DNA of 64,000 bases from Clostridia bacterium (GCA_017430135.1 JAFRNM010000004.1:5499-69498); one strand, 5' to 3'; positions 1,602 to 54,530 are shown, counted from the stretch's first letter. The notes: generated by a model from the letters alone, not told the origin. Translations and numbers: made by a program.

Positions 1602-1602
1602 A

Positions 1603-1634
1603 ACAAAAAACTCAAGCATAGCTTGAGTTTTTTA
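1603..1634. terminator. Bidirectional rho-independent terminator (M23 gene / mecA)
   Basis: aaaaaactcaagcatagcttgagtttttt. A 7-bp GC-containing stem flanked by A-run and T-run. Confidence 0.8.
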
Positions 1635-1635
1635 G

Positions 1636-2244
1636 TTAAATAAAATATTTAATTCCAGTTTTTAAAGCATTTTGCTTAATTATAGGCTTTCCAAATTCCA
1701 AAATTTTTGCTTCAAAATGAGAAGGTTTAGAAACAGCTGTAGCAAATTCGCTAATTATACTAAATAATTTTTTAAAATTTCTATAAGATAAATTAAGCTT
1801 AGAAAATACTAAATAATATGTATTATTATATGAATATAAAGAAATTTTTTTACAAATATTAGTTATAGGTAAATTACTATTATCTACTAGCTCACAAAGG
1901 TTGCAGAACTCATCAAAAGAGTCAAATTTATAAACAGCATAGCTAGAAAAAGATTTATGCTTTTGCCTTTTCAATTTTAGAGTAGTTTTCTTCTTCTTTG
2001 GAGAAAATTTAGTAATAGTAAAAACATAGACTTCATCTAAAGAAGAAAAGGCTTCAATTAAAAGCTTACAATCCTTAGTGTAAAATCCAAAATCTTTTTC
2101 AGCTTTATTCAAAATATCTAAGAAAAATTTTTGAGTTTTTGGATCATTATTTATAAAATCAGATATATTTATATTATTATTAGAAAGCTCTTCTAAATTT
2201 AGAATAATTCTAATCTTATTATCAGTAATTTTTTCAATTTTCAT
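1636..2244 (-). CDS. mecA: Adaptor protein MecA-like
   Basis: 202-aa ORF starting MKIEKITDNKIRIILNLEEL, which resembles the MecA N-terminal signature (MEIERINE..). Convergent with the M23 gene and shares a bidirectional terminator. Confidence 0.5.
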   Translation of the reverse strand: MKIEKITDNKIRIILNLEELSNNNINISDFINNDPKTQKFFLDILNKAEKDFGFYTKDCKLLIEAFSSLDEVYVFTITKFSPKKKKTTLKLKRQKHKSFSSYAVYKFDSFDEFCNLCELVDNSNLPITNICKKISLYSYNNTYYLVFSKLNLSYRNFKKLFSIISEFATAVSKPSHFEAKILEFGKPIIKQNALKTGIKYFI

Positions 2245-2360
2245 TGTAAAAAACCATTCCTTTCAGGTAAAAATTAAATCATTTTCTATAATTATTATAC
2301 TACTTTATTTATTATATTTAAAGGAGTAATTTTTGGTAACCAAATTATTTAAAATAGTAC

Positions 2361-2389
2361 TTGAAAAATTTGCTAAATACATATATAAT
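2361..2389 (+). promoter_or_regulatory. Putative promoter of the radC-mreBCD-pbp2-minC cluster
   Basis: TTGAAA, 17 nt, TATAAT. Confidence 0.45.
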
Positions 2390-2467
2390 ACAAAAGAATA
2401 AAAAAGTAAATATCCGTAAGGAAAAAAGTAAAAAAAGGGCAATTAAAAACAAGAAAGGAAGAAAAAA

Positions 2468-3175
2468 TTGGCAATAAAAATGAAAGAAATGCCAGTGTCT
2501 GAAAGGCCTTATGAAAAGCTAGAATTACAAGGAGAAAAAACGCTTTCAAATGCAGAATTATTAGCAATAATAATAAAAACAGGCACAAAAAACGAAAGTT
2601 CAGTGGATTTGGCATATAAAATACTAAAACTAAATCCAAACACCAAAGAAGATAATCTAAGTTATTTAAAAAATATTAGCATAGAAGAATTTATGCAAAT
2701 AAAAGGAATAGGAAAAGTAAAAGCAATACAACTAAAGGCAATATGTGAGCTGGCTGTAAGAATGAATAAACCAATAAATTATAAAAACATTCAAATAAAG
2801 TCCCCAGAAGATATGGCAAAAGTTGTAATGAACGAATTAAAAAATGAAACAAAAGAAATAGTAAAACTTGTTATGCTGGACAACAGGAATAGAATAGTAA
2901 AAATGCAAAATATTGCTACGGGGGGAAGCAATTTCGCAAATTTTTCTATATCAGAAATTTTAGGAGAAGCACTAAAAACAAAGACACCTAAAATAATACT
3001 AATACATAACCACCCATCTGGAAATTCTGAACCAAGTAAAAGAGATATAGAAATAACATATTCAATATACAATGCATGTCAAACTGTAGGCTTAGAACTA
3101 ATAGATCATATAGTAATTGGAAATGCTGAATATACTAGCATAATGAGCAAGATTGCACATGAACTAGAAAAATAA
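2468..3175 (+). CDS. radC: RadC-family JAB/MPN domain protein (UPF0758)
   Basis: Contains the HhH-like segment ELLAIII and the JAMM motif HNHPSG..S..D. TTG start 7 nt after GGAAG; an alternative ATG start is at 2480. Confidence 0.85.
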   Translation: MAIKMKEMPVSERPYEKLELQGEKTLSNAELLAIIIKTGTKNESSVDLAYKILKLNPNTKEDNLSYLKNISIEEFMQIKGIGKVKAIQLKAICELAVRMNKPINYKNIQIKSPEDMAKVVMNELKNETKEIVKLVMLDNRNRIVKMQNIATGGSNFANFSISEILGEALKTKTPKIILIHNHPSGNSEPSKRDIEITYSIYNACQTVGLELIDHIVIGNAEYTSIMSKIAHELEK

Positions 3176-3257
3176 TAATACACAAAAAGTTATGTGTAAA
3201 AATAAACTAAAGAAAATAAATTAAAAACAGATAAATACAAAAAGGTGAGGAACAAAG

Positions 3258-4292
3258 ATGAAATTATTTAATTTTGCATCAAAAGATATAGGAATAGATT
3301 TAGGAACAGCAAACATTTTAGTAACAATAAAAGGAAGAGGAATAGTATTAAAAGAACCATCAGTTGTAGCGATTGAAAAGAAAACTGGAAATATACTTGC
3401 AACAGGAACAGAAGCAAAGGACATGCTTGGAAGAACACCAGATACAATAAAAGCAATTAGACCATTAAAAGATGGAGTAATAGCTGACTTTACAGCTACA
3501 CAACTAATGTTAAAAAATATAATAAAAAAAGTATCACAAAGATACAAAATAGGAAGACCGAGAGTTGTAGTAGGAGTACCATCAGGAATAACAGAAGTAG
3601 AAGAAAGAGCAGTAGAAGAATCTGTTTTATCAGCAGGAGCACGAGAAGTATATTTAATAGAAGAGCCAATGGCAGCCGCAATCGGTTCAGGCCTTGATGT
3701 TGGAGAACCTACAGGGAATATGGTAGTAGATATAGGCGGAGGAACAACAGAAGTAGCAGTAATATCACTTGGTGGAATAGTTCTAAGCCATTCACTAAGA
3801 ATAGCTGGAGACGAATTAGATGAAGATATTGTCAACTTTATAAAAAGAGAAGCTAACCTAATAATAGGTCCAACACAGGCAGAAACAATAAAATTGCAGG
3901 TTGGTTGTGCATTACCACTTATGTCTGAGGCAACAGTAACAATAAAAGGAAGAGACATTGCAACAGGTTTACCAAGAACAATAGCAGTGTCTTCAACAGC
4001 AATACAAATAGCAATGAAAGAATCAATAGATAAAATAGTAGATGTAGTAAAAACAACTTTAGAAAAAACTCCACCAGAACTAGCAGCAGATATAATGCAA
4101 AATGGAATAGTGTTAGCTGGAGGAGGAGCGCTAATCAAAAACTTAGATAAACTTTTAAATAGAGAAACTGGAATGCCAGTATATGCAACAGATGAACCAT
4201 TAGATGCGGTAGTTCGTGGAACAGAAAGAGTGCTTGAAAACATCGAAAAACTAAAAACAGTGCTAATCAACTCAAGGCGTAGACGTTTCTAA
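3258..4292 (+). CDS. mreB: Rod shape-determining protein MreB
   Basis: 344-aa actin-like ATPase with motifs DLGTANI, VVGVPSG and DIGGGTTE. Followed by mreC and mreD. Confidence 0.95.
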   Translation: MKLFNFASKDIGIDLGTANILVTIKGRGIVLKEPSVVAIEKKTGNILATGTEAKDMLGRTPDTIKAIRPLKDGVIADFTATQLMLKNIIKKVSQRYKIGRPRVVVGVPSGITEVEERAVEESVLSAGAREVYLIEEPMAAAIGSGLDVGEPTGNMVVDIGGGTTEVAVISLGGIVLSHSLRIAGDELDEDIVNFIKREANLIIGPTQAETIKLQVGCALPLMSEATVTIKGRDIATGLPRTIAVSSTAIQIAMKESIDKIVDVVKTTLEKTPPELAADIMQNGIVLAGGGALIKNLDKLLNRETGMPVYATDEPLDAVVRGTERVLENIEKLKTVLINSRRRRF

Positions 4293-4316
4293 AAATAAAA
4301 ATAAGAGGTATAAAAT

Positions 4317-5129
4317 ATGTATAAAGAAAAGAAAAAAGGAGTATGGGGAATAGTCCTTACAATTTTTATCTTAATTTTAATAGTTATTTTTTCTAATAGT
4401 GATGGAGAAAACTCATTTTTAGAAAATGCTGGTTCAAAAATAATAATGCCTATTCAAAATGGATTTACTTTTCTAGCAAATAAGCTAAGCGGAAACGAAG
4501 CTTTTTTTGCTGATGTAGACAGGCTAAAAGAAGAAAACGAAAAACTTTCAAGCAGAAACAAAGAACTAGAAAAGACACTAAAAGAAATGGAAAGTATTAA
4601 AACAGAAAATGAAACATTAAAAGAATACCTAGGCTTAACTGAAAAATACAAAAACTATAAAACAATTCCAGGAGACGTAATAAACAAAGACATTAGCAAT
4701 TATTCAAGAACCATAACAATAAATATTGGTGCCAAAGACGGAGTAAAAAAAGACATGACAGTAATCGCAGAAGAAGGGTTAGTAGGGCATGTAATTGCAG
4801 TAACAGATACAACAGCTAAAGTACAAACAATAATAGACCCAGCAAGTTCAGTAAGCACAATGCTAAGTACTACCAAAGAGGCAATAGTAAGTAAAGGAAC
4901 ACTAGAAAACAAACAAACATTAAAAGCAGTATATATACCAACAGAAGCAAGTGTTATACAAGGAGATGGAATACAAACATCAGGGCTTGGTGGAGTGTAC
5001 CCAAAAGGAATAAATGTTGGAACAATAAAAAAAGTAGTAGATACTGAAAACTTAACAGACAGATATGCGCTAGTAGAAGTAGCAGTGGATTTTAACAAGC
5101 TAAATAGTGTGCTTGTAATAAATCAATAA
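4317..5129 (+). CDS. mreC: Rod shape-determining protein MreC
   Basis: 270 aa. N-terminal TM, then a coiled-coil (LKEENEKLSSRNKELEK), then beta-rich C-terminal domains. Position in the mreBCD operon. Confidence 0.9.
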   Translation: MYKEKKKGVWGIVLTIFILILIVIFSNSDGENSFLENAGSKIIMPIQNGFTFLANKLSGNEAFFADVDRLKEENEKLSSRNKELEKTLKEMESIKTENETLKEYLGLTEKYKNYKTIPGDVINKDISNYSRTITINIGAKDGVKKDMTVIAEEGLVGHVIAVTDTTAKVQTIIDPASSVSTMLSTTKEAIVSKGTLENKQTLKAVYIPTEASVIQGDGIQTSGLGGVYPKGINVGTIKKVVDTENLTDRYALVEVAVDFNKLNSVLVINQ

Positions 5130-5206
5130 AAAGTTGGAAAAATTAAGATGCCAAAATTAAATTGTTTTCCAACTTGGTCCTATAATATTAAGGAAGGATA
5201 GCAAAG

Positions 5207-5740
5207 ATGAGAAAATTTGGGATAAATGTGGCATTGATTTTTATAGCCTTATTAGTATACTTTCTGCAAGAAAACTTCTTTAGCTGGTTTACAATAGCAG
5301 GAGTTATGCCAAACCTATTTGTAATGTTTACATTATTTATAGGTTTATTCTGTGGAAGAAACAAAGGAGTACTTTACGGAATGATAATAGGCTTAATATT
5401 AGATATTGTAGTAGGAAATAGAATTGGAATATATGCAGTTACTCTAGGCGGAGTAGGACTTGCAGCAGGAATTTTTGCAAAAAACTTTTCAAAAGACAGC
5501 AAACTAACAATAATGCTTATGGTAGCTGGTTTAACAGCTGCATTTGAATTGATAACATATCTATTAAATTATTTTATATTAGACACTAATATTGAAATAT
5601 TTATGTTTTTAAAAATATTAATAATCGAAGTAGTTTATAATGTAGTATTAACAATAATAATATATCCATTATTCAGAAAATTTGGATATTTCATCGAGCA
5701 CGAATACAAAGGTGATCAAATTTTAACAAGATATTTTTAA
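5207..5740 (+). CDS. mreD: Rod shape-determining protein MreD
   Basis: 177-aa polytopic membrane protein immediately after mreC. Confidence 0.8.
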   Translation: MRKFGINVALIFIALLVYFLQENFFSWFTIAGVMPNLFVMFTLFIGLFCGRNKGVLYGMIIGLILDIVVGNRIGIYAVTLGGVGLAAGIFAKNFSKDSKLTIMLMVAGLTAAFELITYLLNYFILDTNIEIFMFLKILIIEVVYNVVLTIIIYPLFRKFGYFIEHEYKGDQILTRYF

Positions 5741-5754
5741 ACTTATCTGTTTTT

Positions 5755-5806
5755 GGGGGACATTTCTCTCAAAATAGAAAAGACTTGATTTTGGAAAGTG
5801 TCCTCA
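5755..5806. repeat. Degenerate REP-like inverted pair between mreD and pbp2
   Basis: gggggacatttctc ... cttgattttggaaagtgtcctc. Confidence 0.5.
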
Positions 5807-5831
5807 AAAGCAAAAAGACTTAAATAGGGAG

Positions 5832-7949
5832 GTGAACTTTTTGCGTTCTAGGAAGAAGCGAATTAACAAAAATAACATAAATTTAAGATATAATTTAACA
5901 ACAGTATTAACTTATTTTGTAGGAATAATTCTGATAGGGCAATTGTTCAACCTTCAAATAGTTCATGGGAAAGAGTATAGAGAACAATCCAATACACGTC
6001 TAACGCGTGAAACAACGCTAGAAGCGGCAAGAGGAAAAATATTAGATAGAACGGGTTCAGTTCTAGTAACATCAGAAACAACATTTGCTCTAGAGCTATA
6101 TAAAAGTAAAGTAGATACACAAGTATTAAATGATTGTATGCTAGAAATAGTAAACACATTTAATAAATACCAAATAAAAGTACCAGACACATTTCCAATA
6201 GAAGTAAATCCATATAGATACACATTAGAAGGAGAAGCTTTACAAAAATGGCAAACAGCAAATGGTATAACAGTAGGAAAAACGCCAGAGCAAGTATTTA
6301 CAGAATTTAAAGAAAAATATGTAATATCAAACAATAGCTTAGAAGACGCGAGAAAAATAATAGGTCTAAGATATGAAATAAACAAAAATGGTTATAGTAG
6401 CACAAGAGCTTTTAGATTAGCAGATAATGTACCAAGAGAAGCAGTAGCAGAAATATCAGAAAAAAGCAATAAATTCCCAGGAGTAAATGTAGTAGTTGAA
6501 CCTAAAAGACAATACACATCAGGAACAGTAGCATCACACATATTAGGATATTCAGGTAGAATAACACAAGAAGAATACGAAAATAATAAAGAAATTTATG
6601 ATATAAATGATACAGTTGGAAAAACAGGTATAGAATACTCATTTGAAGGTTACCTAAAAGGAAAAAACGGAATAAAACAAATAGATATGGGAGTAGATGG
6701 AACAGCCTCTGGAGAATATGTAACACAAAATGCAATTGCAGGTTCAAATATAGTGCTAACAATAGATGCAAATCTTCAAAAAATAGTAGAAAATGCATTA
6801 GCGGCAAACATACAAAAAATATCAAGTGGAGGCTTTGGTAAAGTATATGATGCACAAGCAGGTTCAGTAGTAGTAATGAATGTAAAAACTGGGGAAGTGC
6901 TTGCGATGGCGAGTTATCCAGACTATGACCCAAGTAAATTCGTAGATGGAATAAGCGTAAAAGACTGGAACGAATACAATACCAACCCAAATCATCCACT
7001 AGTAAACAAAGCAATGCAGGTGTCATATTCACCAGGTTCAACCTTTAAAATGATATCAGCGATAGCAGCACTAGAAAGTGGAGTGGTTTCACCAACAGAG
7101 CAAATAAACGATACAGGATTATATAAATTAGGAAATAGAACGTGGAGTTGCTGGTTTTATACAGATTATCATGTTGGGCATGGACCATTAGATGTTACAG
7201 GAGCTATAAAACATTCATGTAACTACTACTTCTACGAAGTAGGAAACCGAATGGGAATAGACAATCTAGTGAAATTTGCAAAATATTTTGGATTAGGAAA
7301 TAAAACAGGAATAGAACTTAGAAACGAGACTAAAGGCGTTTTAGCAAGTAAAGAAGCAAAAACAGCATTAAAACAACAATGGGTACCTGGAGACATGCTA
7401 AACGCAGTAATAGGACAAGGTTTAAATGAATTCTCACCATTACAAATGGCCAAATATATCAGTACATTAGCAAATGGTGGAAAAAAAGTTGATGTAACAA
7501 TAGTAAAATCAATAATAAATGCAGATGGAACAGAAGTACCAAGAGAAAAAATTAACGAATATACAAATGCAAGGTTAAATATAGAACCAGAGCAAGATGA
7601 CGGAATAACATTAAACCAAGACTATCTAAGGCTTGTATTAGACGGAATGCAGTCAGTTACACAAGAAGCGGGAGGAACTGCTTACAACATATTTAGAGAC
7701 TTCCCAATAAAAGTAGGAGGAAAAACAGGGTCAGCCGAAGCACCAGGGAACAAGGTAAATGCATGGTTCGTAGGATTTGCACCATTTGATGACCCAGAAA
7801 TCGCAATAGTAGTAATGGTAGAAAATGGTGGACATGGAAACTACACAGCAGAAGTGGTAAGAGATGTAATGTCAGAATACTTTGGGATGAACACAAAAGA
7901 TATTCAAGAAGATATATCAGCTAAGGCATTGACACAATTGGATTTATAA
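5832..7949 (+). CDS. mrdA: Penicillin-binding protein 2 (elongation transpeptidase)
   Basis: 705 aa. N-terminal TM and PBP dimerisation domain. Transpeptidase motifs STFK, SCN and KTGS. GTG start. Synteny after mreBCD. Confidence 0.9.
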   Translation: MNFLRSRKKRINKNNINLRYNLTTVLTYFVGIILIGQLFNLQIVHGKEYREQSNTRLTRETTLEAARGKILDRTGSVLVTSETTFALELYKSKVDTQVLNDCMLEIVNTFNKYQIKVPDTFPIEVNPYRYTLEGEALQKWQTANGITVGKTPEQVFTEFKEKYVISNNSLEDARKIIGLRYEINKNGYSSTRAFRLADNVPREAVAEISEKSNKFPGVNVVVEPKRQYTSGTVASHILGYSGRITQEEYENNKEIYDINDTVGKTGIEYSFEGYLKGKNGIKQIDMGVDGTASGEYVTQNAIAGSNIVLTIDANLQKIVENALAANIQKISSGGFGKVYDAQAGSVVVMNVKTGEVLAMASYPDYDPSKFVDGISVKDWNEYNTNPNHPLVNKAMQVSYSPGSTFKMISAIAALESGVVSPTEQINDTGLYKLGNRTWSCWFYTDYHVGHGPLDVTGAIKHSCNYYFYEVGNRMGIDNLVKFAKYFGLGNKTGIELRNETKGVLASKEAKTALKQQWVPGDMLNAVIGQGLNEFSPLQMAKYISTLANGGKKVDVTIVKSIINADGTEVPREKINEYTNARLNIEPEQDDGITLNQDYLRLVLDGMQSVTQEAGGTAYNIFRDFPIKVGGKTGSAEAPGNKVNAWFVGFAPFDDPEIAIVVMVENGGHGNYTAEVVRDVMSEYFGMNTKDIQEDISAKALTQLDL

Positions 7950-8031
7950 ATAAAGAGAATTCAGCAAAAGCGAGTATTACTAGGCAAAATCGGACGAAGC
8001 TTTTCATGAATTTGAGAAAGGATGTAAAAAA

Positions 8032-8643
8032 ATGAGAAACTGCCTATCAATAAACTTAAAAAGAAATGAATTAGTGATAAGAATAAAAGATGATGCAAAA
8101 TATGAGGACATATTAGAAAGTTTTAGGAAAAAAATACCAGAACTAAAAAAACTATATCAAGATGATACAACACCAATAAGAATAACAGGAAAATTACTTA
8201 AAAATAAAGAAATAGATGAAATACAAGAAATGTTACAAGAAGAAATAGGGGTAGCCATAGAATTTGATACTCCTAAAAGTTTAGGATTAGCAAGCATCAG
8301 AAAAACATTTGACCAAAAAATTGCTACATCAGAAACAAAATTCCATAGAGGTTCATTAAGATCAGGTCAAAGAATGGAAACAGAAGGAAGCCTTGTAATA
8401 ATAGGAGATGTAAATTCAGGAGCGGAAGTTGTTGCTTCAGATAATATTGTAGTTCTTGGAAGCCTTAGGGGACTGGCACATGCAGGGGCTAAAGGAAATA
8501 AAAGTGCAGTTATTGCAGCTGGAACATTTGATGCAGTACAAGTTAGAATAGCAAACATAGTTAAAGAAATAAATAGAGATGAAGAACCATTACACAAAAA
8601 TAGCTATTTATATGTTGAAAACGACAAAATAATAATAGAATAA
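8032..8643 (+). CDS. minC: Septum site-determining protein MinC
   Basis: 203 aa. C-terminal beta-helix segment GSLVIIGDVNSGAEVVASDNIVVLGSLRGLAHAG is typical of MinC. No minD or minE follows. Confidence 0.85.
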   Translation: MRNCLSINLKRNELVIRIKDDAKYEDILESFRKKIPELKKLYQDDTTPIRITGKLLKNKEIDEIQEMLQEEIGVAIEFDTPKSLGLASIRKTFDQKIATSETKFHRGSLRSGQRMETEGSLVIIGDVNSGAEVVASDNIVVLGSLRGLAHAGAKGNKSAVIAAGTFDAVQVRIANIVKEINRDEEPLHKNSYLYVENDKIIIE

Positions 8644-9603: not shown

Positions 9604-9803
9604 ATAAGGTAGGGTTATGTGTTATTTTTGCGTTGTAACAGAAATGTAACAAAAACTTAATATTTCTGTAACATACATGATGAAAATACTTCCGTAAATA
9701 TTAAAACATTATGAAAAAAACGAAAAGAAATAACATATTGACTTCTAAAGCTAAAAAAAGTTATTATAAAATTAAGTAATAAAGTTTTTAAGGAGGAAAA
9801 ATT

Positions 9804-12800
9804 ATGAAAGGAAAACTATTACAAAAAACAACAGCACTTATGCTAGTACTATGCATGACAATGGTAAACTTTATATTTGTTGCCACAAACATAGTATATG
9901 CGGTAAGCGAAAGCCAAGTTAGCATTGAAAGCGGAAAGATAACATTTGACGCTTATTTTAAAGACGCTAATGGAAACAAAATTTACACAAAAGAAGCAAA
10001 TATATCAGAAGGGGCTACTTTATATGCTAAAATTAAGCTACAAAGTGGTATTTTAAAAGATGCAAAAATCACAATAAACAATGCAAACTTTAAATTACCT
10101 GAAATAGTAAATAGCCCATATGTTGCAGGAGTAAACAATGCAACAAAAGAAATCAAATTCATAGAATTAGATGGAAGCCATGTAAATGATATAGAATTAG
10201 AAATTCCAGTAACATTTGAAAAGCAATCTACAATTGATGTAGGTTATTTTGACATGGAAAACGGAATTACCCTTTCAGGAGAATATAAAGCCTCTGAAAC
10301 ATTTAAATCAACAACAGCAACAATAAATACAAACCTAAAATGGAAAGAAGACGATTCAGCAAAAGCATTACCAACTGTTAATTATAAACAAGAAAAAGCA
10401 ATAAAAGACGGAAACAAAGCGCTTGTTCAAGAAAAATTAACAGTAAAAGGTGGACTTCTACCTAGATTAGAAGACCAATTAAATGTAACAATTCCAAAAA
10501 TAAATAACAAAGAACCAGATACAGTAACACTTTTAATAAATGGAGCAAAAGTTAACTTAAGTCCAAATAACATAACAACAGGAGAAACTCCAGCATTACA
10601 ATATACAAACACATTAAAAAATGGTAATACAATCAACTGGGGAACTGGAACAGATGTGTATACATTAATATATATATATGAAGATATAGAAAATATAGAT
10701 AGTGTAAAAACAGTTACAAGAGATATACAAACAGCACAAGTTAAGCTATCTGTATTAAATAAAACATTAGAAGACGATACAGTAAGATTACCAAAAGAAA
10801 GCAAAGGCCCAATGACAATCGAATTCAGTTACGGACACCATATTGTAAGTGTAGAAGCTACAAGTGTATCTAAAGAAGTATATAAAGGATTCATGTATGC
10901 AAATGCAAATAATGAAACAACATATACAGAAAAATATAATGTAGAAATATCAGATAAAACTAATATCAACAAAGTTGAACTAGAATTATTAAAAGATAAA
11001 TTTGAACATGTAGAAGTTGTAGAAGATAAAATCCAAGAAACAAACGTCCAAGAAACAAACAACCAAACAAAATACAAAACAATAAAAGTAGATTGGGATA
11101 GTGCAAGCAAAGTATTAGGATCAGATGGAACAATCAAAATAATAGATGATGAAGGAAAACAAATAGAAATAAATGCTTCATCAGAAAAAGAAGTTCAATT
11201 AAATTCACACAATATAACAATAACAACAAGCAAACCAGTAAATGAAGGAACAATAGAAATAGTTGCAGAAAAAACAATAATTGGAGATGCTGGACTAAGC
11301 AAAGAAACAATACAAAATATAAACGCAATAGTAACAAAAATGAGAGTTACAACAAACAAAGATGCTAATGGTTCATGGTTAGAGGCAATAACACAATTAA
11401 AAGAACCAACAACAAAACCAGCAACATTATCATTAACAAGTGGAAATGTATTTTCAACAAAAAATGTAAATGATGTAGAGTTCCAAGTTAAATTTCCAAC
11501 AGGAACACCAGATACATACTTATTTAAACAACCAAAAATAACATTAGAATTACCAGAAGATGTATCAGAAATATCAAACGTATCAGCAAAAGCATTATTT
11601 GCAGATAAAAATGAATTACAAGTTGAACAAAGTGATATAACAGTAGAAGGAAACAAAATAATAATTCCAATCAAAGGTGAACAAACAATGTTTGATAACC
11701 AAACAGTTGGAGGAATTGTAGTAACAATAAATGCAAAAGTAGCAGTAAAAGCTAACGTGCCAGAAGGAACAGAATTACCAGTAGCAAAAGCAGCAAAAGT
11801 AACAATGTCATACACAAACGAAAATGCTGCAACACAACCAGAATCTGTTTCAACAGATGTAATAATAGACATACAAAAACAAGAAACAGCAGAGCCAACA
11901 CAAGAACCAACACAAGAGCCAACTCAGGAACCAACCCAAGAACCAACACAAGAGCCAACACAAGAACCAACACCAGCTGTTGAAGAAAAAACAGATAAAA
12001 TAAAAGTTACAATGTCAGCAGTATCAGCTGGAGTAACATTAAAAGATGGAGACCAAATAAATGCAGGTCAAGCAGTAACATATACATATGTTGTAGAAAA
12101 TTTAACAAATTCTAATATAGAAAATTTAAAATTAACAGTAGACCATGATGGAACAGCAAAAATATATGAAGATGTAACAGAAAAAGACGAATTACAAAAA
12201 GACTATACATTTGAAAAATTAACAGAAAATACATCAAAAGAATTTAATTTACAAACATTATTAGCAGGAACAAAATCACAACCAATAGTATATCAAGTAA
12301 GAGTAAACGAAGATGCAACACAACTAAAATCTAAAGCAACAATTAGTGGAAAAAATATTGATATGGTTGAAATTAATAAAACAAATACAGTAAAACAAGC
12401 TGAATTAGAATTGGATTTACAAACAAATATAGCAAAAGAATATAGTGCTGAAAAAGATGTAATATCTTATAACATCTTAAAAATAGCAAATAAAACAGAA
12501 AACTTATTAGAAAATATTAAAGTAACAATAAAAGTACCAAAAGAATTCAAGATAGATAAATTAGAAGCAAATGTTGAAGGTAGCGAGGATTTTGTAATAA
12601 GCAATAATACAACAAATAGTAATACATTAACATTTACAATTAACAAATTAGCTGCTAAAAACAAAAAACAATACAAATTGTCACTATACATGCAAGAAGA
12701 GAAACCAACAAGAACAAATGTAGAATATAACTATTCAGCAACAGTTGGAGAAAACACATACTATTCAAATACAGTTTCTGTAAAATTGAGAGCAATGCCA

Positions 12801-14291
12801 GAATCAAAATTACAAATTGCTCAAACAGTTAATATAGCAAGTGGAAGCACAGTAAAAACAGGTGATGAACTAGTATATAAAATTGGAATGAAAAATATTG
12901 GAACAGACGCAGATGAATTCATATTCACAGACTATGTTCCAAACGCAGCTGTTGTACAAAAAGCTTCATATAAAATAGGAGAAAAAGAAACAGAAATTTC
13001 TGTAAAAGATAATACAATAATTCAAACAATAGTATTAAATCCAGGAGAAACAGCAATTGTGACAATTACAACAAAAATTGATGAAGAAAAAACTGGTAGA
13101 GAAGAAATAACAAATTATGCAACTATAGTAGGAAACCTATTAGAAAAAGAAGTAAAAACAACTGGAATAACACATGTATTAGCTGCAAATATTAGAGAAG
13201 AAGAACCACAAGAAGAACCAGAAGTGGATCCACAACAAGGGGAAAATCCAACAAATTCAGAAAATGATCCAACAATACCAGGAACAGTAACAACAAAAAA
13301 TTCAATTTCTGGTATGGCATGGATAGACACAAACAAAAATGGTATAAGAGAAAGCTCAGAAAAACCATTTGCAGGAATTACAGTAATGTTAGTAAACACA
13401 AAAACAAATAAATTTGTAACAGATGAAAATGGTTCAAAATTAACTATAACAACAGATTCAAAAGGTGCATACGAATTTGAAAACATAGAAGAAGGAAGTT
13501 ACATGGTAGTATTCACATATGACAATCTAAAATATAGAAATACAGAATACCAAGCAAAATCAGCAACAGAAACAACAAACTCAGACATAATAACAGGAAC
13601 AATAACAACAGATAGCAATTCAAAAGTGTATGCAATGACAGATAAATTAGTATTAACAAATAAAAGCTTAGAACATATAGATGCTGGATTTATCGAAAAC
13701 GAAGTATTTGATTTAAAAATAAACAAATACATAAGCAAAGTAACAATTCAAAATACTGCTGGAACAGTAGTAAAACAATACAATAAACAACAACTAGCAA
13801 AAGTTGAAATAGATGCCAAATTATTAGCATCATCAACAGTATTAGTAGAATACACACTAGAAGTAACAAACGAAGGCGAACTTGCAGGATATGCAAACGA
13901 ATTAGTAGACTATATGCCAAAAGATATGAGTTTCAACTCAGAAATAAACAAAGACTGGTATAAGTCAACAGATGGAAATGTTCATACAACAGCACTTTCA
14001 AAAGAATTAATAAACCCAGGAGAAACAAAGAAAGTTGTATTAACATTAACAAAAGCAATGACAGAAAACAACACAGGTGTAACAACAAACAAAGCAGAAA
14101 TTGCAAAATCAAGTAATGAATTATCAATACCAGACAAAGATACAGCAGATAACACAAGCTCAGCAGAATTAATTGTATCAATTAGAACAGGTGTTGAAGT
14201 ATCAATAGGAATTATAATTGCAATAATTGCAATGACTGCAACAGGAATAGTAGTATACACAAAGAAAAGAAAGGAGGCAAAACATGAGTAA
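9804..14291 (+). CDS. Large surface-anchored adhesin/pilin-like protein (Cna-B/SpaA-type and DUF11-like domains)
   Basis: 1495 aa. Signal peptide. (EPTQ)x7 linker. Prealbumin/Cna-B-like module (GITVMLVNTKTNKFVTDENGSKLTITTDSKGAYEFENIEEGSY). C-terminal SIRTG + TM + KKRK tail. Paralogous to the first half of the 22520 ORF. Confidence 0.85.
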   Translation: MKGKLLQKTTALMLVLCMTMVNFIFVATNIVYAVSESQVSIESGKITFDAYFKDANGNKIYTKEANISEGATLYAKIKLQSGILKDAKITINNANFKLPEIVNSPYVAGVNNATKEIKFIELDGSHVNDIELEIPVTFEKQSTIDVGYFDMENGITLSGEYKASETFKSTTATINTNLKWKEDDSAKALPTVNYKQEKAIKDGNKALVQEKLTVKGGLLPRLEDQLNVTIPKINNKEPDTVTLLINGAKVNLSPNNITTGETPALQYTNTLKNGNTINWGTGTDVYTLIYIYEDIENIDSVKTVTRDIQTAQVKLSVLNKTLEDDTVRLPKESKGPMTIEFSYGHHIVSVEATSVSKEVYKGFMYANANNETTYTEKYNVEISDKTNINKVELELLKDKFEHVEVVEDKIQETNVQETNNQTKYKTIKVDWDSASKVLGSDGTIKIIDDEGKQIEINASSEKEVQLNSHNITITTSKPVNEGTIEIVAEKTIIGDAGLSKETIQNINAIVTKMRVTTNKDANGSWLEAITQLKEPTTKPATLSLTSGNVFSTKNVNDVEFQVKFPTGTPDTYLFKQPKITLELPEDVSEISNVSAKALFADKNELQVEQSDITVEGNKIIIPIKGEQTMFDNQTVGGIVVTINAKVAVKANVPEGTELPVAKAAKVTMSYTNENAATQPESVSTDVIIDIQKQETAEPTQEPTQEPTQEPTQEPTQEPTQEPTPAVEEKTDKIKVTMSAVSAGVTLKDGDQINAGQAVTYTYVVENLTNSNIENLKLTVDHDGTAKIYEDVTEKDELQKDYTFEKLTENTSKEFNLQTLLAGTKSQPIVYQVRVNEDATQLKSKATISGKNIDMVEINKTNTVKQAELELDLQTNIAKEYSAEKDVISYNILKIANKTENLLENIKVTIKVPKEFKIDKLEANVEGSEDFVISNNTTNSNTLTFTINKLAAKNKKQYKLSLYMQEEKPTRTNVEYNYSATVGENTYYSNTVSVKLRAMPESKLQIAQTVNIASGSTVKTGDELVYKIGMKNIGTDADEFIFTDYVPNAAVVQKASYKIGEKETEISVKDNTIIQTIVLNPGETAIVTITTKIDEEKTGREEITNYATIVGNLLEKEVKTTGITHVLAANIREEEPQEEPEVDPQQGENPTNSENDPTIPGTVTTKNSISGMAWIDTNKNGIRESSEKPFAGITVMLVNTKTNKFVTDENGSKLTITTDSKGAYEFENIEEGSYMVVFTYDNLKYRNTEYQAKSATETTNSDIITGTITTDSNSKVYAMTDKLVLTNKSLEHIDAGFIENEVFDLKINKYISKVTIQNTAGTVVKQYNKQQLAKVEIDAKLLASSTVLVEYTLEVTNEGELAGYANELVDYMPKDMSFNSEINKDWYKSTDGNVHTTALSKELINPGETKKVVLTLTKAMTENNTGVTTNKAEIAKSSNELSIPDKDTADNTSSAELIVSIRTGVEVSIGIIIAIIAMTATGIVVYTKKRKEAKHE
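11892..11975 (+). repeat. 12-bp in-frame tandem repeat x7 encoding (EPTQ)7
   Basis: gagccaacacaa / gaaccaacacaa units with synonymous variation. Confidence 0.9.
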
Positions 14292-17200
14292 GATATTAAA
14301 TAAAACTAAAAAAATATCAGTATCAATGTTATTCTTTATAGCATTATTAGCTATAATAGTAACAAGCATAAATGCCTCAATTACAAGTGAAAAAACAACA
14401 GTAATGGACTTAATAAAAGAAGCACAAAATGATTCATGGTATAATTACTCACCATCAAAAGATATGATTGGTAAAAAAATAGGAATTACAGCATCAAATA
14501 GCTATAATTCAGCATATTGTATCGACGGACATACACCAAAAGATAATGGTAATTCTTGGGGAGGATACTATGACATAGTTAACGTATTTGATGTAAACAA
14601 CAATAAAAACACAGTTGTAGTATATAGTATAGAAAATCCAAATGGAACAGAATATTCTTTATCAGATGAAAGAATAAAACCAATCTTAATGCTTTCATAC
14701 TTAACACAAAAAGCAACTGAAAATTCATCAGATTTAACTGCATTTGGATATAAAGATGTACTATCAAGAATATTCTGGAATGCTACATGGATAAGAGATT
14801 TAAAAGCAGTTGGATTATCAAGTTCATTCCATGCACCATATACTTTGAATAATGGAAACCTTGTAAATGCTGCCAGAAAAATAGCAGAAGCAAAACAATA
14901 TGCAGAAAATATGATGGCACAAGGAGCAATAGAAACAGCAGAATTAAGTGATTCTGTTATGACAGAAGCTGAAAAAAGCAGAGTAAGTGTAACAAAAATA
15001 AATGGAAAAACATTTATAGGACCATATAGAATAAACTTAAAAGCAACAAAAGTTGGAGAAATAAAAGTAAATGGAGAAAATGCTATAGGAATATCTACTG
15101 ATATGAAAACAGTTGAAAGTTTTGATAAAATAGTAGATGCAAAAGAGTTCTATATAGTAACAGAAAAAGATTATAATGAAATTAAAAGTATTACAGTAAA
15201 AGCAAATAAAACAATTTCAACAATGAAATCTAGAATGGTATTATTAGGAAATTCACCTAGCCAAAACTTCTTAGTTTGGAAATCTGAAGAAACAACAATA
15301 ACACCAGAAGTAGAATTAGAAACTCCAAAAACAGGAACACTAGAAATCCAAAAAGTAGACGAAAACAAAGACTCAACAATAAGCCTAAAAGACATAGAAT
15401 TCAAAGTATATGCTGAGAAAAAAGGATGGGTAGAACAAAATGGAGAAAACATTACATTCAACAATGAAAAGAATGCATTTGACAAAGTAAAACCATTCAA
15501 AACAGACTCAAAAGGAAAAATATCAATCAAAAACTTACCAACAGGATACTATTGGATTTATGAAACAGGCTTACCAGAGAACTTACAAGGAATCTACCAA
15601 TTAGGAGAAACAAAAGTACCTGGAAAAGACGATTTTGTAAAAGCAAAAAGAGTTGTTATGAAAAAAGGAACAACAGAGAATGATACAATTATGAATTTAA
15701 AATTTAGTGTATCAGCAGGTCAAACAGCAACAGTAACAGCAGTAAATAGCAGAGCATATACTGATGTAACTGTTCACAAAACAGATAAAGATACAGGAAA
15801 AGCCTTAAACGGATACGTATTCAGACTATACAGAATAGATGGAAACGAACAAGGTTGGGTAAGAGCCGAAAATAATGTAGTATTAGAGAAAGACACATAC
15901 ACAAAAGACTTTAGAGACGCAAAAATTGCAGATCTAACTACAACAAATGGAATAACACAAACACTTAAAAAACTTCCAGTAGGAACATATGAATTATATG
16001 AAACTGAAGAAGGTGAAAATGGAGAAGTTTACGATCTAGGAAAATTCAAAAAAGACAATAATGAATATGATGGTAAACTAATCGACACACAAGAAGTAAA
16101 AGCAAATGCAACAGGAGTATTCACTTTCGAAGTTGAAAACGTACCAGTATTCATCAAAATCTCTGGAAAAGTTTGGGAAGATGTTGAACAACTTGTAAAA
16201 AATGAGTATAGAAGAGATAATAAATATACACAAAGTAATGATAAACTAGTTGGTGGAATAGAAGTTATACTATTTAACCTACAGACTCAAGAAAGAAGAA
16301 CAACTTATACAAGCACAGATGCTGAAAACTTTGGTGAATATACATTTGAAAATGTAAGAATAAGAAAATCAGAAAAATCAGGAACAGCTGACTTATTACA
16401 ATACTATGTAATACAATTCAAATATGATGGATTCATCTATCAAAGTACAATAAATTCAGATGCTGAAGTTAAAAAATTCAACGATGATGGAACAATAAAT
16501 GTAACAGATTCAAAAGCATTTGACGACCAAGAAGAAAGAAATAAACTAAACAACAAATTTAAAAATGTAACAGGAGAAGATGAAGGATTAAAATACCAAA
16601 AAGACCAAAATAGGGTAGTATCATTACAAAACACTTCAACATTAACAGAAACTGAAAAAGGTGTAAAAGTAGAAGGAGAAACAGACTTTAAAATAACAGC
16701 ACGTTCAACAGGTAACACCATAAAAGCCTACTATGATAAACTAAAAGACAATGGAGATGTAGTAACAGAAATACAACACATCGATTTAGGTGTATATCGT
16801 AGAAAAATGACAGATATATCATTAACAAATTCTGTATACAATGCAGAAGTAAGTGTAAATGATTTTACATATACATATAGATATGATAGAACAGCAAAAG
16901 ATCCTAAAAAAACAGTAACAGGTGCGGTATTCGATTCAAAATATCCATTCCCACTATATGAAGCAGATGTTGAATATAAACCAGCAGATGAAAGCAAAAA
17001 ATTACATGCAGCAGTAACATATAGAATTACATTAAGCAATCATACACAAAACCTATACACAACAGTAAATGGTATAGACGAATGGTTCTCAAAGAATTAC
17101 TCTCTTGCTAAAGAAGATGGTCAATACGCTATATATGTAAGCGATAGTGAAACAGAAACAACATTTGACAAAACAAATAGAGTAAGCGTAAAAGTAGATA

Positions 17201-19110
17201 CAAATAATGATGACACAACATACAACAAGGCAAGAATAATATTTGAAAATCCAATTGGAATTTCACCAAGAGAAGCAAGTGGAGAAACTTTAAAATATCT
17301 ATATATTAAATTAGATATAAATAACATAACAGAAATATACAATAAAGAAGCAAACTTGGAGAATTTTGCAGAAATAAATAGTTACACAACATATTCAGAT
17401 AGTGAACACAAAAACATATATGCAGCAATAGACGAAACATCAATTCCAAGAAACATGGATCCAAAAAGATTTGTTGAAACAGATGAAGACGATTCAGATA
17501 AAGCAAGAGGATTACATTTAGTAGATGCTGGACAAAGAACAGTTTCAGGAACAGTATTCGAAGATGAAGTATTACAAGATAAATTAAATAACAACAATGA
17601 AAGAATAGGAAATGGTATATTTGATGTTGATGCCGGAGAAAAAACAATAAAAGATGTTAAAGTACAACTAGTAGACAATAACGGAAATAAAGTCCAAGTA
17701 TATAACGGAAGCGATTGGGTAGATGCAGTTGCAACATCAACAGATGAAAAAGGTAGCTTCACAATCTCTGGATTCTTACCAGGAGCATACAGATTAGTAT
17801 ATACATGGGGAGATGGAAATGGCTACAAAGTAGAAGACTACAAAGGAACAATCTATGTAAATTCTGAAAGAGCAAACGATGTAAAATGGTATAAAGATGA
17901 AGGAAATAGATACTCAGATGCAATAGATAATTACAACATGAGATTAGCAATAGATTACGATGCATTAGGATTAGCTACAGAAAATTATACTCCAGCTGAA
18001 ATGGAAAAAATAAATACAATAAAAGCTGCTTATGGAGAAAAAATCAACGAAATGAAATCAACAACTCCAGCCTTCGAAATAGGAATTGAAAAAGACGAAT
18101 ATACTCAAACACCAGAAGGAAATGGATTCAAATTTGAAGTTAAAAACATCGACTTTGGTATTATAGAAAGACCTCGTCAAGTAATGAACATCAAAAAAGA
18201 CCTAAGAGGAATTGTATTAACAACAAACGATGGTCAACAAGTTGTAAATGCTGAAATTGACAAAGACGGAAAACTAAATGTTAGAACAGGTGAAAAATAC
18301 GTTTCTGGTGGAAATGGATTACCTTACATTTGGGTACAAGTAGATAAAAACATAACAACAGGAATGGCAGCAAAATTAAAATATGCAATTACAGTAAGCA
18401 ACGATAGTGAAAAAGATTACGATGATGAAAAATACTACAAATTTGGTACAAGTGATGAAAGCAAAGCAGTAAAAATGAAATTAAAAGCACAAGACGTATA
18501 TGATATCTGTAGTGGAGCGGTATTAGCTAAAGATCAAGTAAATACAAATACATGGACAACAGTAGGAACAGATGAATTCAAGAACTCAGCAGAAACTATG
18601 ACAGAAAAATACTTTACAGAGAACTTGATAACAGATGAAGATGGCTACATTACAGGTGGAAACTGGGAAAAATCATCAGTAATTTCAACAGAAATATTAA
18701 ATGAATGGATGGAAAACATCACATCAACAAAGACTGTAAGAAGTGTAAGAATTCCACAAAATGCAGTAATAATGAAATATGCTTCAGAAGATGGAAAACT
18801 ACTTAGAGAAATGGAACCAGGAGAAAGCGAAACAGCCGAAATAGTTACATCAAAAGAACTTTCAAATGGAGACAATATTAGATTTGATAATGATGTAGAA
18901 ATAACAAACATTGTATATTCTACAACTCAAAAAACAGGAAGAAAACCAAGTGCAAACACATCAAGAACATACGATAGAGCTGAATGGACAACAGTAACAC
19001 CAGCAACAGGTGAAGATAGAGACTACACATGGATAATAATCACAGCAGTATCTGCAATAGCAGTACTTGGAGCAGGAATAATAATCATAAAGAAAAAAGT
19101 TCTTAAATAA
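14284..19110 (+). CDS. Large surface protein (Cna-B/SpaA-type folds), co-transcribed partner of the upstream adhesin
   Basis: 1608 aa. Start overlaps the upstream stop by 8 nt and uses an RBS embedded in the upstream tail. N-terminal signal/anchor. Contains TGTLEIQKVDENKD..ISIKNLPTGYYWIYETGLPENL. C-terminal TPATGEDRDY + TM + KKK tail. Paralogous to the second half of the 22520 ORF. Confidence 0.85.
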   Translation: MSKILNKTKKISVSMLFFIALLAIIVTSINASITSEKTTVMDLIKEAQNDSWYNYSPSKDMIGKKIGITASNSYNSAYCIDGHTPKDNGNSWGGYYDIVNVFDVNNNKNTVVVYSIENPNGTEYSLSDERIKPILMLSYLTQKATENSSDLTAFGYKDVLSRIFWNATWIRDLKAVGLSSSFHAPYTLNNGNLVNAARKIAEAKQYAENMMAQGAIETAELSDSVMTEAEKSRVSVTKINGKTFIGPYRINLKATKVGEIKVNGENAIGISTDMKTVESFDKIVDAKEFYIVTEKDYNEIKSITVKANKTISTMKSRMVLLGNSPSQNFLVWKSEETTITPEVELETPKTGTLEIQKVDENKDSTISLKDIEFKVYAEKKGWVEQNGENITFNNEKNAFDKVKPFKTDSKGKISIKNLPTGYYWIYETGLPENLQGIYQLGETKVPGKDDFVKAKRVVMKKGTTENDTIMNLKFSVSAGQTATVTAVNSRAYTDVTVHKTDKDTGKALNGYVFRLYRIDGNEQGWVRAENNVVLEKDTYTKDFRDAKIADLTTTNGITQTLKKLPVGTYELYETEEGENGEVYDLGKFKKDNNEYDGKLIDTQEVKANATGVFTFEVENVPVFIKISGKVWEDVEQLVKNEYRRDNKYTQSNDKLVGGIEVILFNLQTQERRTTYTSTDAENFGEYTFENVRIRKSEKSGTADLLQYYVIQFKYDGFIYQSTINSDAEVKKFNDDGTINVTDSKAFDDQEERNKLNNKFKNVTGEDEGLKYQKDQNRVVSLQNTSTLTETEKGVKVEGETDFKITARSTGNTIKAYYDKLKDNGDVVTEIQHIDLGVYRRKMTDISLTNSVYNAEVSVNDFTYTYRYDRTAKDPKKTVTGAVFDSKYPFPLYEADVEYKPADESKKLHAAVTYRITLSNHTQNLYTTVNGIDEWFSKNYSLAKEDGQYAIYVSDSETETTFDKTNRVSVKVDTNNDDTTYNKARIIFENPIGISPREASGETLKYLYIKLDINNITEIYNKEANLENFAEINSYTTYSDSEHKNIYAAIDETSIPRNMDPKRFVETDEDDSDKARGLHLVDAGQRTVSGTVFEDEVLQDKLNNNNERIGNGIFDVDAGEKTIKDVKVQLVDNNGNKVQVYNGSDWVDAVATSTDEKGSFTISGFLPGAYRLVYTWGDGNGYKVEDYKGTIYVNSERANDVKWYKDEGNRYSDAIDNYNMRLAIDYDALGLATENYTPAEMEKINTIKAAYGEKINEMKSTTPAFEIGIEKDEYTQTPEGNGFKFEVKNIDFGIIERPRQVMNIKKDLRGIVLTTNDGQQVVNAEIDKDGKLNVRTGEKYVSGGNGLPYIWVQVDKNITTGMAAKLKYAITVSNDSEKDYDDEKYYKFGTSDESKAVKMKLKAQDVYDICSGAVLAKDQVNTNTWTTVGTDEFKNSAETMTEKYFTENLITDEDGYITGGNWEKSSVISTEILNEWMENITSTKTVRSVRIPQNAVIMKYASEDGKLLREMEPGESETAEIVTSKELSNGDNIRFDNDVEITNIVYSTTQKTGRKPSANTSRTYDRAEWTTVTPATGEDRDYTWIIITAVSAIAVLGAGIIIIKKKVLK

Positions 19111-19301: not shown

Positions 19302-19475
19302 ATATTTAGATTATAATCAAAGAGTTTAAGCTTTAAAAAACTAATATTATCTTTGCGAAATAATTTATAAATTATTCAAAAAATTTTTATCTAAAAAATC
19401 ATGAAAATCCAAAAAACAAAATATAAATTTGACTTACTTATACATTTTGTATATAATATGTATAGGAGGGTCAAA

Positions 19476-20057
19476 ATGAAAAAAACAGATATTTTAAAAA
19501 ATTTTATTGAAAAAAATAATGGAGTATTATTAACAAGTGATGTTGTAAATATGAATATTCATAAGCAATATATAAAAATATTATGTAATGAGGGCTATAT
19601 TAGAAAAGTTGAAAAAGGGGTTTATGTAAAAAAAGGAAAGAACATAAATGATTTCTTTTTATTGCAACAAAGATATAAAAGTGGAATTTTTTCACACAAT
19701 ACAGCTCTGTATTTTTATCACCTAACAGATAGAACTCCTCAAAAAATAGATCTAACATTTAAAAACAAAATAAGGTTACAAAACAAACTTATTAATTCTC
19801 ATTATGTAAAAGAAGAATATTTAAATATTGGATTAACAAGCTTAAAATTTAATGATAATACAAATGTGCAATGTTATGATATTGAAAGGACAATAATTGA
19901 TATTATTAGAGATAGAAATAAAATAGATATTCAGATTTTTAATACAGCAATTAAAGAATACATGAAAATGAAAGATAAAAATTTAATTAGATTGGCTAAA
20001 TACGCAAAAATATTTAAAGTTGAAAAAATATTAAAGCAGTATATGGAGGTTTTATAA
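19476..20057 (+). CDS. abiEi: Type IV toxin-antitoxin antitoxin, AbiEi family (wHTH transcriptional regulator)
   Basis: About 193 aa from MKKTDIL (RBS AGGAGGG). The N-terminal pattern GVLLTSDVV..GYIRKVEKGVYV matches the AbiEi_4 family. 1-nt overlap (TAATG) with the downstream AbiEii gene. Confidence 0.6.
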   Translation: MKKTDILKNFIEKNNGVLLTSDVVNMNIHKQYIKILCNEGYIRKVEKGVYVKKGKNINDFFLLQQRYKSGIFSHNTALYFYHLTDRTPQKIDLTFKNKIRLQNKLINSHYVKEEYLNIGLTSLKFNDNTNVQCYDIERTIIDIIRDRNKIDIQIFNTAIKEYMKMKDKNLIRLAKYAKIFKVEKILKQYMEVL

Positions 20058-53018: not shown

Positions 53019-53420
53019 ATGAAAGTAATGCTAGACACTAATATTCTAATATCAGCATTTATTTTTAAAAGTAATAAAATGAATAATTTAATTTATGAAT
53101 TATCAAAAAAACATGAAATTGTTATATGTTCATACACGATAGAAGAATTAAAGGAATTATTTGAAAATAAATTTAATGTTAGTCTAAAAACATTAAATTT
53201 ATTTTTGAAAAATTTTCCTTTTACATTGGTAAAATCACCTAATAATCCACAAGAAAATCTTTTCAATATTCGAGATAAAGATGATTATATAATATTATAT
53301 ACTGCGATAGTTGAAAATGTGGATGTTTTTATAACGGGAGATAAAGATTTTGATGATGTTGAAATTAAAAAACTGGAAATTTTAAAACCTTCAGAATTTA
53401 TTCAGAAATATTTAAATTAG
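53019..53420 (+). CDS. PIN-domain (VapC-like) toxin
   Basis: 133 aa. Starts MKVMLDTNILISA with later acidic residues, consistent with a PIN nuclease. Sits 2 nt after the antitoxin. Confidence 0.65.
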   Translation: MKVMLDTNILISAFIFKSNKMNNLIYELSKKHEIVICSYTIEELKELFENKFNVSLKTLNLFLKNFPFTLVKSPNNPQENLFNIRDKDDYIILYTAIVENVDVFITGDKDFDDVEIKKLEILKPSEFIQKYLN

Positions 53421-53500
53421 ATTTTTAAATCTTAAATAAAAAATTAAGTCATAAATAAATTCCAAAATAATATTGATAAAATTATGAAATAGGAGGAGTA

Positions 53501-54262: not shown

Positions 54263-54265
54263 TAT

Positions 54266-54519: not shown

Positions 54520-54530
54520 GGAGGTTGGAA

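Follow-up and report, generated by a model that had tools for sequence, protein, structure and literature searches.

Giant surface proteins of uncultured gut Clostridia carry candidate lineage-specific variants of the LPXTG sorting signal

Proteins with an LPXTG sorting signal (TIGR01167, PF00746) combine a signal peptide with a C-terminal pentapeptide ending in T-G, a hydrophobic segment and a basic tail. In Clostridioides difficile, the sortase SrtB cleaves the related pentapeptides SPKTG, PPKTG, SPSTG as well as SPQTG between T and G (PMC4155245), and two SPKTG proteins are anchored to the cell wall in vivo (PMC5569036). Here we describe four sorting-signal-like elements in three very large surface-protein genes, located on a 64,000-nucleotide stretch of DNA from a Clostridia bacterium (GCA_017430135.1, JAFRNM010000004.1:5499-69498), which we refer to as the window. 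All coordinates are counted from its first letter, and all three genes lie on the plus strand. Gene A (9804-14291) and gene B (14284-19110) code for secreted giant surface proteins of 1495 and 1608 amino acids (aa), with what we call an A-type and a B-type signal at their respective C termini. A third, fused gene (22520-33700; 3726 aa) encodes an A paralogue (aa 1-1336), a membrane hairpin and a B paralogue.

Based on sequence comparisons, we lean towards reading the four elements as lineage-specific variants of LPXTG-class sorting signals that are recognized by a sortase encoded elsewhere in the genome. They seem to be a novel form of an established sorting signal, not a new sorting system. 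The precursors would be exported via their N-terminal signal peptides and held in the membrane by the C-terminal transmembrane segment (TM) and basic tail, and a housekeeping-type sortase from elsewhere in the genome would then cut between T and G and link the Thr to peptidoglycan. We infer the existence of this sortase as well as the cleavage and wall linkage.

Sequence, profile membership and conservation of the signals

Protein A ends in ...NTSSAELIVSIRTG-VEVSIGIIIAIIAMTATGIVVY-TKKRKEAKHE (...AELIVSIRTG-TM-TKKRKEAKHE). Its pentapeptide S-I-R-T-G is encoded at 14178-14192 (aa 1459-1463), followed by the TM VEVSIGIIIAIIAMTATGIVVY at 14193-14258, the basic tail TKKRKEAKHE at 14259-14288 and a stop codon ending at 14291. 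The C terminus of protein B reads ...YDRAEWTTVTPATG-EDRDY-TWIIITAVSAIAVLGAGIIII-KKKVLK (...TVTPATG-EDRDY-TM-KKKVLK), with T-P-A-T-G at 18997-19011 (aa 1572-1576) and the acidic spacer EDRDY, the TM TWIIITAVSAIAVLGAGIIII, the basic tail KKKVLK and the stop codon at 19012-19110. The fused protein contains an internal A-type signal, ...NTSNADFIISISTG-ALTYILFIVLIISIIVIVL, at aa 1331-1355 (...ADFIISISTG-TM; nucleotides 26513-26584), which together with the membrane hairpin spans 26513-26689. Here, S-I-S-T-G (26513-26527) and TM1 (26528-26584) precede a K-rich loop, NYKFNIINKFK (26585-26617), TM2 (26618-26665) and the sequence QVSYPSKA, which provides an AxA-like site and extends to 26689. TM2 is the counterpart of the signal peptide of B. 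The C terminus of the fused protein is a degenerate B-type signal, ...YDRAEYVTVSPAQG-EDKDY-TM-KRYVSSK (...TVSPAQG-EDKDY-TM-KRYVSSK), in which S-P-A-Q-G (33584-33598) is followed by EDKDY, the TM, KRYVSSK and a stop codon ending at 33700. The peptides spanning the four signals are VTVTPATGEDRD, LIVSIRTGVEVS, IISISTGALTY and VTVSPAQGEDKD. At the three C termini, the hydrophobic segments comprise 21-22 residues and lead into a KKRK, KKK or KR tail, within ~35 residues of the end of the protein.

An earlier note, made from the sequence alone, had flagged positions 14150-14300 and quoted these tails; translation reproduces all of the quoted sequences, and the S-I-R-T-G codons fall inside the flagged interval. 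Its description of a tripartite arrangement of motif, TM and basic tail with motifs other than LPXTG was borne out for SIRTG, TPATG, SISTG and SPAQG. The note had also stated that the first half of the fused protein ends in such a signal. The SISTG-TM element is indeed present, but it is internal and does not end the protein, because the K-rich loop and TM2 follow it.

None of the four pentapeptides is a literal L-P-x-T-G. The B-type signal of the window retains P, T and G, the A-type signals T and G, and the C terminus of the fused protein P and G. We asked how profile models classify these tails when scanned in isolation. With the NCBI model LPXTG_anchor (TIGR01167; curated cutoff 15.9 bits), the A tail (SIRTG) scores 18.3 bits and the B tail (TPATG) 18.6 bits, both above the cutoff, as do a family-consensus TPPTG tail (21.3 bits) and a family member with LPSTG (23.8 bits). 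In the alignments, P-A-T-G of B falls on P-x-T-G of the model, whereas the A tail is aligned only from T-G onward. By this standard annotation criterion, the A and B tails would belong to the LPXTG class. When full-length proteins were compared with NCBIfam, only DUF11 repeats were reported and the short anchor model emerged from the isolated tails; the missing match is thus a filter effect.

Protein B shares further features with LPXTG signals: its Pro occupies the canonical position, and its Gly is followed by an acidic residue, as in LPxTGE. The differences are a Leu-to-Thr replacement in B and, in A, the replacement of 'LP' by [STG][IVL] and the lack of a spacer between Gly and the TM. The signals also resemble the SrtB substrates of C. 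difficile (PMC4155245, PMC5569036, PMC5118464): both sets are clostridial and follow the pattern x-P-x-T-G, in which a small polar residue takes the position of Leu (compare TPATG and SPAQG), and TPATG was correctly noted earlier to be near the clostridial (S/P)PXTG type. In contrast to C. difficile, position 1 is mostly Thr rather than Ser or Pro, and the protein families are unrelated; the strict [SP]-P-x-T-G motif is satisfied neither by TPATG of the window nor by the fused-protein SPAQG, which lacks the Thr, as had been pointed out in the note. A literature search for TPPTG, TPXTG, TPATG and TPSTG signals returned nothing relevant. The boutique signals QVPTGV (TIGR03065), Rumino_NPXTG (NF033846) and srtB_target (TIGR03063) likewise place a short C-terminal x-x-x-T-G beside a TM. 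All scores against these models remain below their cutoffs of 21.35, 23.5 and 18.15 bits, respectively, with QVPTGV reaching 18.5 bits for the A-type tail of a relative and Rumino_NPXTG 14.6 bits for the B tail. Neither signal type therefore belongs to these classes.

To define the extent of the B family, we searched a profile of its conserved C-terminal module exhaustively against 1.84 billion cluster representatives and obtained 963 proteins at E<=0.001, 152 of them at E<=1e-30; a word-indexed homology search with the B tail had returned 2 matches. Tail statistics were derived from the best 150 of the 963 representatives, which are clusters at <=50% identity and include 149 complete tails. 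The Gly is present in 149/149 complete tails and the preceding Thr in 142/149. Among the 141 motifs scored, the consensus T-P-[PSAN]-T-G has T at the first position in 112 and P at the second in 111 (79%). The pentapeptide is followed family-wide by [ED]-N-x-[ND]-Y, the TM and IKKKVL. TPATG, the form found in the window, ranks second among the variants. A few members have a literal LPxTG (LPSTG in P0160, LPHTG in P0164), and SPATG occurs in P0117 and P0143. PAQG is limited to five closely related representatives (P0018-21 and P0025), the closest relatives of which have PATG, and the Thr-to-Gln exchange is thus a derived state in a small subclade. The paralogues in the window are only 26-31% identical overall, yet ~74% identical across the B signal.

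A-type tails were gathered by a word-indexed search, then by a profile search (51 hits) and finally from the open reading frames (ORFs) of 77 related loci. Every complete A-type tail found has [STG]-[IVL]-x-T-G, a TM and a basic tail, and an alignment of 16 sequences has only six invariant columns among 194, two of which are this T and G. The ends of distant B relatives, ...PGN...DDSMAETTIVTPATGEN..., align with ...PGN..GEDDxSSAELIISIRTG of A, so that the A signal resembles a B signal from which the Pro and the acidic spacer are missing. The note had regarded the motifs as incidental if other proteins did not share them. They are shared across both families, far beyond chance expectation, and we conclude from the sequence comparisons that they are not incidental.

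The 77 loci come from a scan of GTDB with one genome per species, which gave 246 confirmed relatives with the B C-terminal module. All of the distinct loci retained belong to metagenome-assembled genomes (MAGs) of uncultured gut or rumen Clostridia (e.g. Clostridium sp. CAG:343, CAG:440 and 28_17), and nearly all members of the family as a whole come from metagenomes and MAGs. The best match shares 58% identity, indicating that the species of the window is missing among the GTDB representatives. The exact B protein is present on 10 metagenome contigs, and the first gene of the window was matched exactly on a 256-kb contig. In one metagenome scaffold (L078), the sequence diverges abruptly from that of the window inside gene A at ~9697-9730 (corresponding to window ~13980-14010), leaving a split call of 1435 + 77 aa. 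We considered an anchor-removing frameshift or phase variation and rejected it, as the break looks like a chimeric assembly join instead. Gene A is also split in locus L079 (878 + 533 aa).

Evidence bearing on sortase cleavage

Taken part by part, the B-type signal (T-P-x-T-G, acidic spacer, TM, KKK) appears near-canonical apart from the Leu-to-Thr exchange and is a likely sortase substrate. The A-type signal (phi-x-T-G abutting the TM) appears stripped down, having lost Pro and spacer, and is a possible substrate; it would probably be read by the same enzyme as the B-type signal, though we are less sure of this. The SPAQG variant is probably not a substrate.

The main rival explanation, to which we give a lesser though still appreciable weight, holds that these tails are plain, uncleaved membrane anchors, with T-G serving as a structural hinge or helix N-cap, or persisting as a relic of an ancestral LPXTG signal. 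A and B would then be tethered side by side in the membrane, and the TM hairpin would join them in the fused proteins. A number of observations weigh against sortase processing, and several of them favour this alternative. We modeled the A tail with AlphaFold2, using the 16-sequence alignment (mean predicted local distance difference test score, pLDDT, 89.6), and obtained an immunoglobulin (Ig)-like sandwich, for which a fold search with the terminal domain of A returned generic Ig-like and CARDB-type matches only. The last strand comprises residues 150-160 of the 194-residue query (TSSAELIVSIR, protein A aa 1451-1460), T161-G162 (aa 1462-1463) are the sole non-regular residues and the TM helix starts at 163. 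In this model, S-I-R thus belongs to the last β-strand and a two-residue T-G linker connects it to the membrane, leaving no free linker and little unfolded substrate for a sortase. S-I-R is probably structural rather than a recognition sequence, and the conserved NTSxAE-LIVSI context together with S-I-R would represent domain structure, with T-G the only signal-like residues. The earlier note had taken the conserved upstream context as a sign of enzyme recognition. The model argues otherwise for A, and the conserved context of B is shared family sequence. A corresponding model of the B C-terminal module, calculated from a three-sequence alignment, has a pLDDT of 34.5 and is too poor to place TPATG.

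The uncleaved-anchor alternative also draws on the SPAQG end of the fused protein, where the Thr has been lost, on the ~32 fused proteins discussed below, which keep an A signal internally and not at the C terminus, and on precedent: in C. difficile, two proteins bearing SPSTG and SPQTG were found unprocessed in vivo (PMC5569036). CbpA of C. difficile has a proposed NVQTG signal, a Pro-less motif of the form polar-aliphatic-x-T-G comparable to SIRTG, and this motif was not cleaved by SrtB in vitro (PMC4155245), which makes it a weak precedent for the A type. A motif alone hence does not prove processing. Profile evidence is not uniform either. Neither signal of the fused protein matches TIGR01167. 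This protein also differs from LPXTG proteins in having one internal signal and one signal lacking Thr. With Pfam Gram_pos_anchor (PF00746) the A tail scores 15.2 bits, below the gathering cutoff of 20, while the B tail has no match.

A hinge would, however, be expected to tolerate Ser, Asn or Asp in place of the Thr and Ala, Ser or Asn in place of the Gly, whereas hundreds of sequences at <40% identity show next to no variation at either T or G. This argues against uncleaved anchors but is not decisive. The Pro, acidic spacer and KKK tail of B are those of cleaved LPXTG signals and pass TIGR01167, and a canonical signal does exist in the lineage. In one related locus (L014), a 235-aa protein is encoded directly 3' of a B gene with the ending ...VTSPTGENRQY-TM-KKK. 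A signal peptide and a Pfam Cohesin domain precede the canonical ...NLPKTG-LSTW-TM-YKKIC tail of this protein. It is one of two tandem cohesin-domain proteins at L014 1880-3254, the paralogue having a TM tail alone. In another locus (L047, 5957-7243), a Big_2 protein ends in ...VAPTG-K-TM-RYKNLK. Unrelated proteins of related genomes thus bear PxTG signals, the canonical form included, and the LPKTG cohesin protein suggests that a sortase pathway exists in this lineage.

We searched for the enzyme itself. A Pfam scan of the window covered ORFs >=100 aa, antisense ORFs nested in larger genes excluded, and revealed no sortase domain. We then applied phmmer with Staphylococcus aureus SrtA and SrtB and a TLxTC-type regular expression, with no match among all stop-to-stop ORFs >=100 aa of the window, including the nested antisense ones. 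The earlier statement that the 64 kb contain no sortase is therefore upheld for window ORFs of this size. The 10 kb that flank the window on its left in the 256-kb metagenome contig likewise contain no sortase, and the 77 related loci plus the window (1.385 Mb) gave no phmmer match at E<=10. Six matches to the TLxTC-type expression in this sample are not plausible, two of them being proteins of ~200 aa without a Pfam domain. The lack of a linked sortase in the window, the 10 kb to its left and the 77 loci counts against sortase processing, and its absence from the 77 loci speaks for uncleaved anchors. If one sortase were randomly placed per ~1.8-Mb genome, ~0.8 sortases would be expected in the 1.385-Mb sample, so that our search rules out linkage but not presence in the genome. 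In C. difficile, too, the sortase need not adjoin its substrates.

The note had proposed a dedicated processing enzyme, either an unusual sortase or another system. We find that none is needed, since the A and B tails pass TIGR01167, literal LPSTG and LPHTG members exist and an LPKTG protein is encoded next door in a related locus. The second form of this idea, in which a non-sortase system encoded elsewhere (rhomboid- or rhombosortase-like, an analogue of exosortase or archaeosortase, or some other membrane peptidase) reads x-T-G by the TM, seems very improbable to us. It could explain why no sortase is seen and why the Pro-less A motif abuts the TM, as in GlyGly-CTERM and PEP-CTERM-type signals; together with PGF/PEF-CTERM these share the order of motif, TM and basic cluster. 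The A tail also has weak matches to archaeal models (Heimdall-CTERM 17.1, cutoff 24; PEF-CTERM 13.7, cutoff 23; Loki-CTERM 10.7, cutoff 19.9). These hidden Markov model matches are all sub-threshold, however, and it is the TM and basic tail that account for them; for these tails, every non-sortase CTERM model stays short of its cutoff, and the T-G chemistry is of the sortase type. B is a straightforward PxTG signal passing the LPXTG model. Furthermore, no exosortase, archaeosortase or rhombosortase domain is found in the window or among conserved neighbours, and no candidate processing enzyme, be it an exosortase, a rhomboid or another peptidase, is conserved beside the genes in the 77 loci.

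The same evidence could be divided between the two proteins. In such a mixed scheme, which we consider quite unlikely, the B-type TPxTG signal would be processed by a sortase and linked to the wall while the A-type signal would stay uncleaved, the pair bridging membrane (A) and wall (B). The profile alignment, which covers P-x-T-G of B and only T-G of A, would fit this arrangement, as would the absence of a spacer in A, the position of its motif at the end of a folded strand and the resistance of the Pro-less C. difficile motif to SrtB. Yet T-G is equally invariant in A and B, as would hardly be expected if the two had no reader in common, and the A tail, too, exceeds the cutoff of TIGR01167.

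If TPxTG and phi-xTG tails are indeed sortase substrates, the known motif range of clostridial sortases widens, and surfaceome predictions based on LPXTG or (S/P)PXTG patterns miss the largest surface proteins of a widespread lineage of uncultured gut and rumen Clostridia, in a family that comprises at least 963 clusters at 50% identity. Until both a sortase and cleavage have been demonstrated, the practical importance is modest.

Fused A+B proteins

In related loci, A and B genes are adjacent or overlapping, often as several tandem pairs. We identified ~32 fused ORFs of 2,700-3,200 aa in these loci (L002-L077), all of which keep an internal [SG]-[IV]-x-T-G motif, a TM and a basic loop. A second TM is detected in about one third of them and also in the copy of the window, where the K-rich loop and second TM after the internal signal give the protein a consistent topology (out, TM, loop, TM, out). 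Within the same loci, split forms occur alongside fused ones, which points to frequent fusion and fission in this clade. The fused protein of the window is 26% identical to A (E=2e-69) and 31% identical to B (E=3e-124) in BLASTP comparisons. With no scissile Thr in SPAQG, it most likely stays membrane-anchored, as judged from its sequence.

The retention of an internal signal is unusual. We entertain, as a doubtful extension of the sortase reading, that the specificity of the sortase or sortase-like enzyme in this lineage has been cut down to x-T-G at the membrane face and that the fused A+B proteins of 2,700-3,700 aa are true polyproteins. Cleavage at the internal S-x-T-G may then wall-anchor the A half, the basic loop and second TM may act as the signal peptide of the B half, and a single translation product may in this way give rise, outside the cell, to two surface proteins with separate anchors. 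If so, the free interchange of split and fused forms and the ever-kept internal T-G would both be explained. The recurrent fusions with an internal signal provide a natural test of sortase action at internal sites.

Gene organization and neighbourhood

The window represents a segment of a low-GC (~29%) Firmicute chromosome, and its host is an uncultured gut Clostridia bacterium. The genes mreB-mreC-mreD, a PBP2-type transpeptidase gene and minC occupy 600-8643, rpoB and rpoC lie farther along, and the three giant genes are located in between. The A-B pair directly follows mreBCD-PBP2-minC, with no minD or minE after minC in the window, and in 24 related loci MinC is likewise encoded next to it on the upstream side. 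When we clustered the flanking genes, we found MinC upstream and SpoIIE, a WG-repeat protein, ACPS, TatD and LemA with an M48 peptidase downstream, that is, only housekeeping genes. In this clade the pair therefore has a fixed place in the chromosome, beside genes of cell shape and division, rather than being a mobile island, and no candidate processing enzyme accompanies it. A and B probably form a core envelope or adhesion structure of these organisms.

By inspection, the N termini of A, B and the fused protein all show a K-rich n-region followed by a hydrophobic core and an AxA-like site. Protein A consists of DUF11/DUF7927 repeats, an EPTQ repeat, an SdrD_B domain and the terminal Ig-like domain (Pfam, NCBIfam), and the B-domains of SdrD/UafA were its sole matches in a sequence search of the Protein Data Bank (PDB). 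The EPTQ repeat is a perfect (EPTQ)n or PT-type linker at aa 693-723 (window 11880-11970), and the A half of the fused protein has linkers related to it (PDEPDTPDTP...). Protein B has SpaA/CnaB-type domains ahead of a conserved ~330-aa C-terminal module and no match in the PDB. Its N terminus (window 14284-14800) contains a [YF]-C-I-[DEQ] motif ~70-80 residues in, which is present in 36/83 full-length family members. The motif recalls the Cys of thioester adhesin domains, and we considered a thioester (TQXA) domain at this position; TQxA is not conserved and no TED model matches, so that the assignment was not upheld.

Genes A and B overlap by 8 nucleotides. The final codons of A (KEAKHE*, to 14291) hold the start of B, with its Shine-Dalgarno sequence AAGGAGG and ATG at 14271-14286, which implies translational coupling of the two genes. 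The embedded start explains the K(E/G)A(K/S/N)HE ending seen in close relatives, and the conservation of the A tail is thus in part due to the gene overlap.

Between the split A-B pair and the fused gene, a pair encoding an AbiEi-like antitoxin and an AbiEii nucleotidyltransferase toxin (a type IV toxin-antitoxin or abortive-infection pair) is inserted at 19401-20911. In the closest related loci (L002 and L003), the fused gene lies ~1.2 kb past B and this insertion is absent. Just upstream of the fused gene, 21458-22180 codes for a 240-aa predicted lipoprotein (signal end ...VAACG) with a long Thr/Ala/Glu-rich low-complexity region and no Pfam match. Farther downstream, 56131-63555 encodes a 2474-aa protein with at least 11 Listeria-Bacteroides (Flg_new) repeats, which ends in ...WSVRLLDIINK and has no TM or sorting signal; its exact sequence has no record in the contig index. 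An x-T-G anchor is thus not universal among the giant surface proteins of this organism. Finally, a small cluster of mobile or defence-like character lies downstream of rpoC at 53019-55775, made up of a PIN-domain protein, an IS200-like Y1 transposase and an AAA_14/DUF4143 ATPase.

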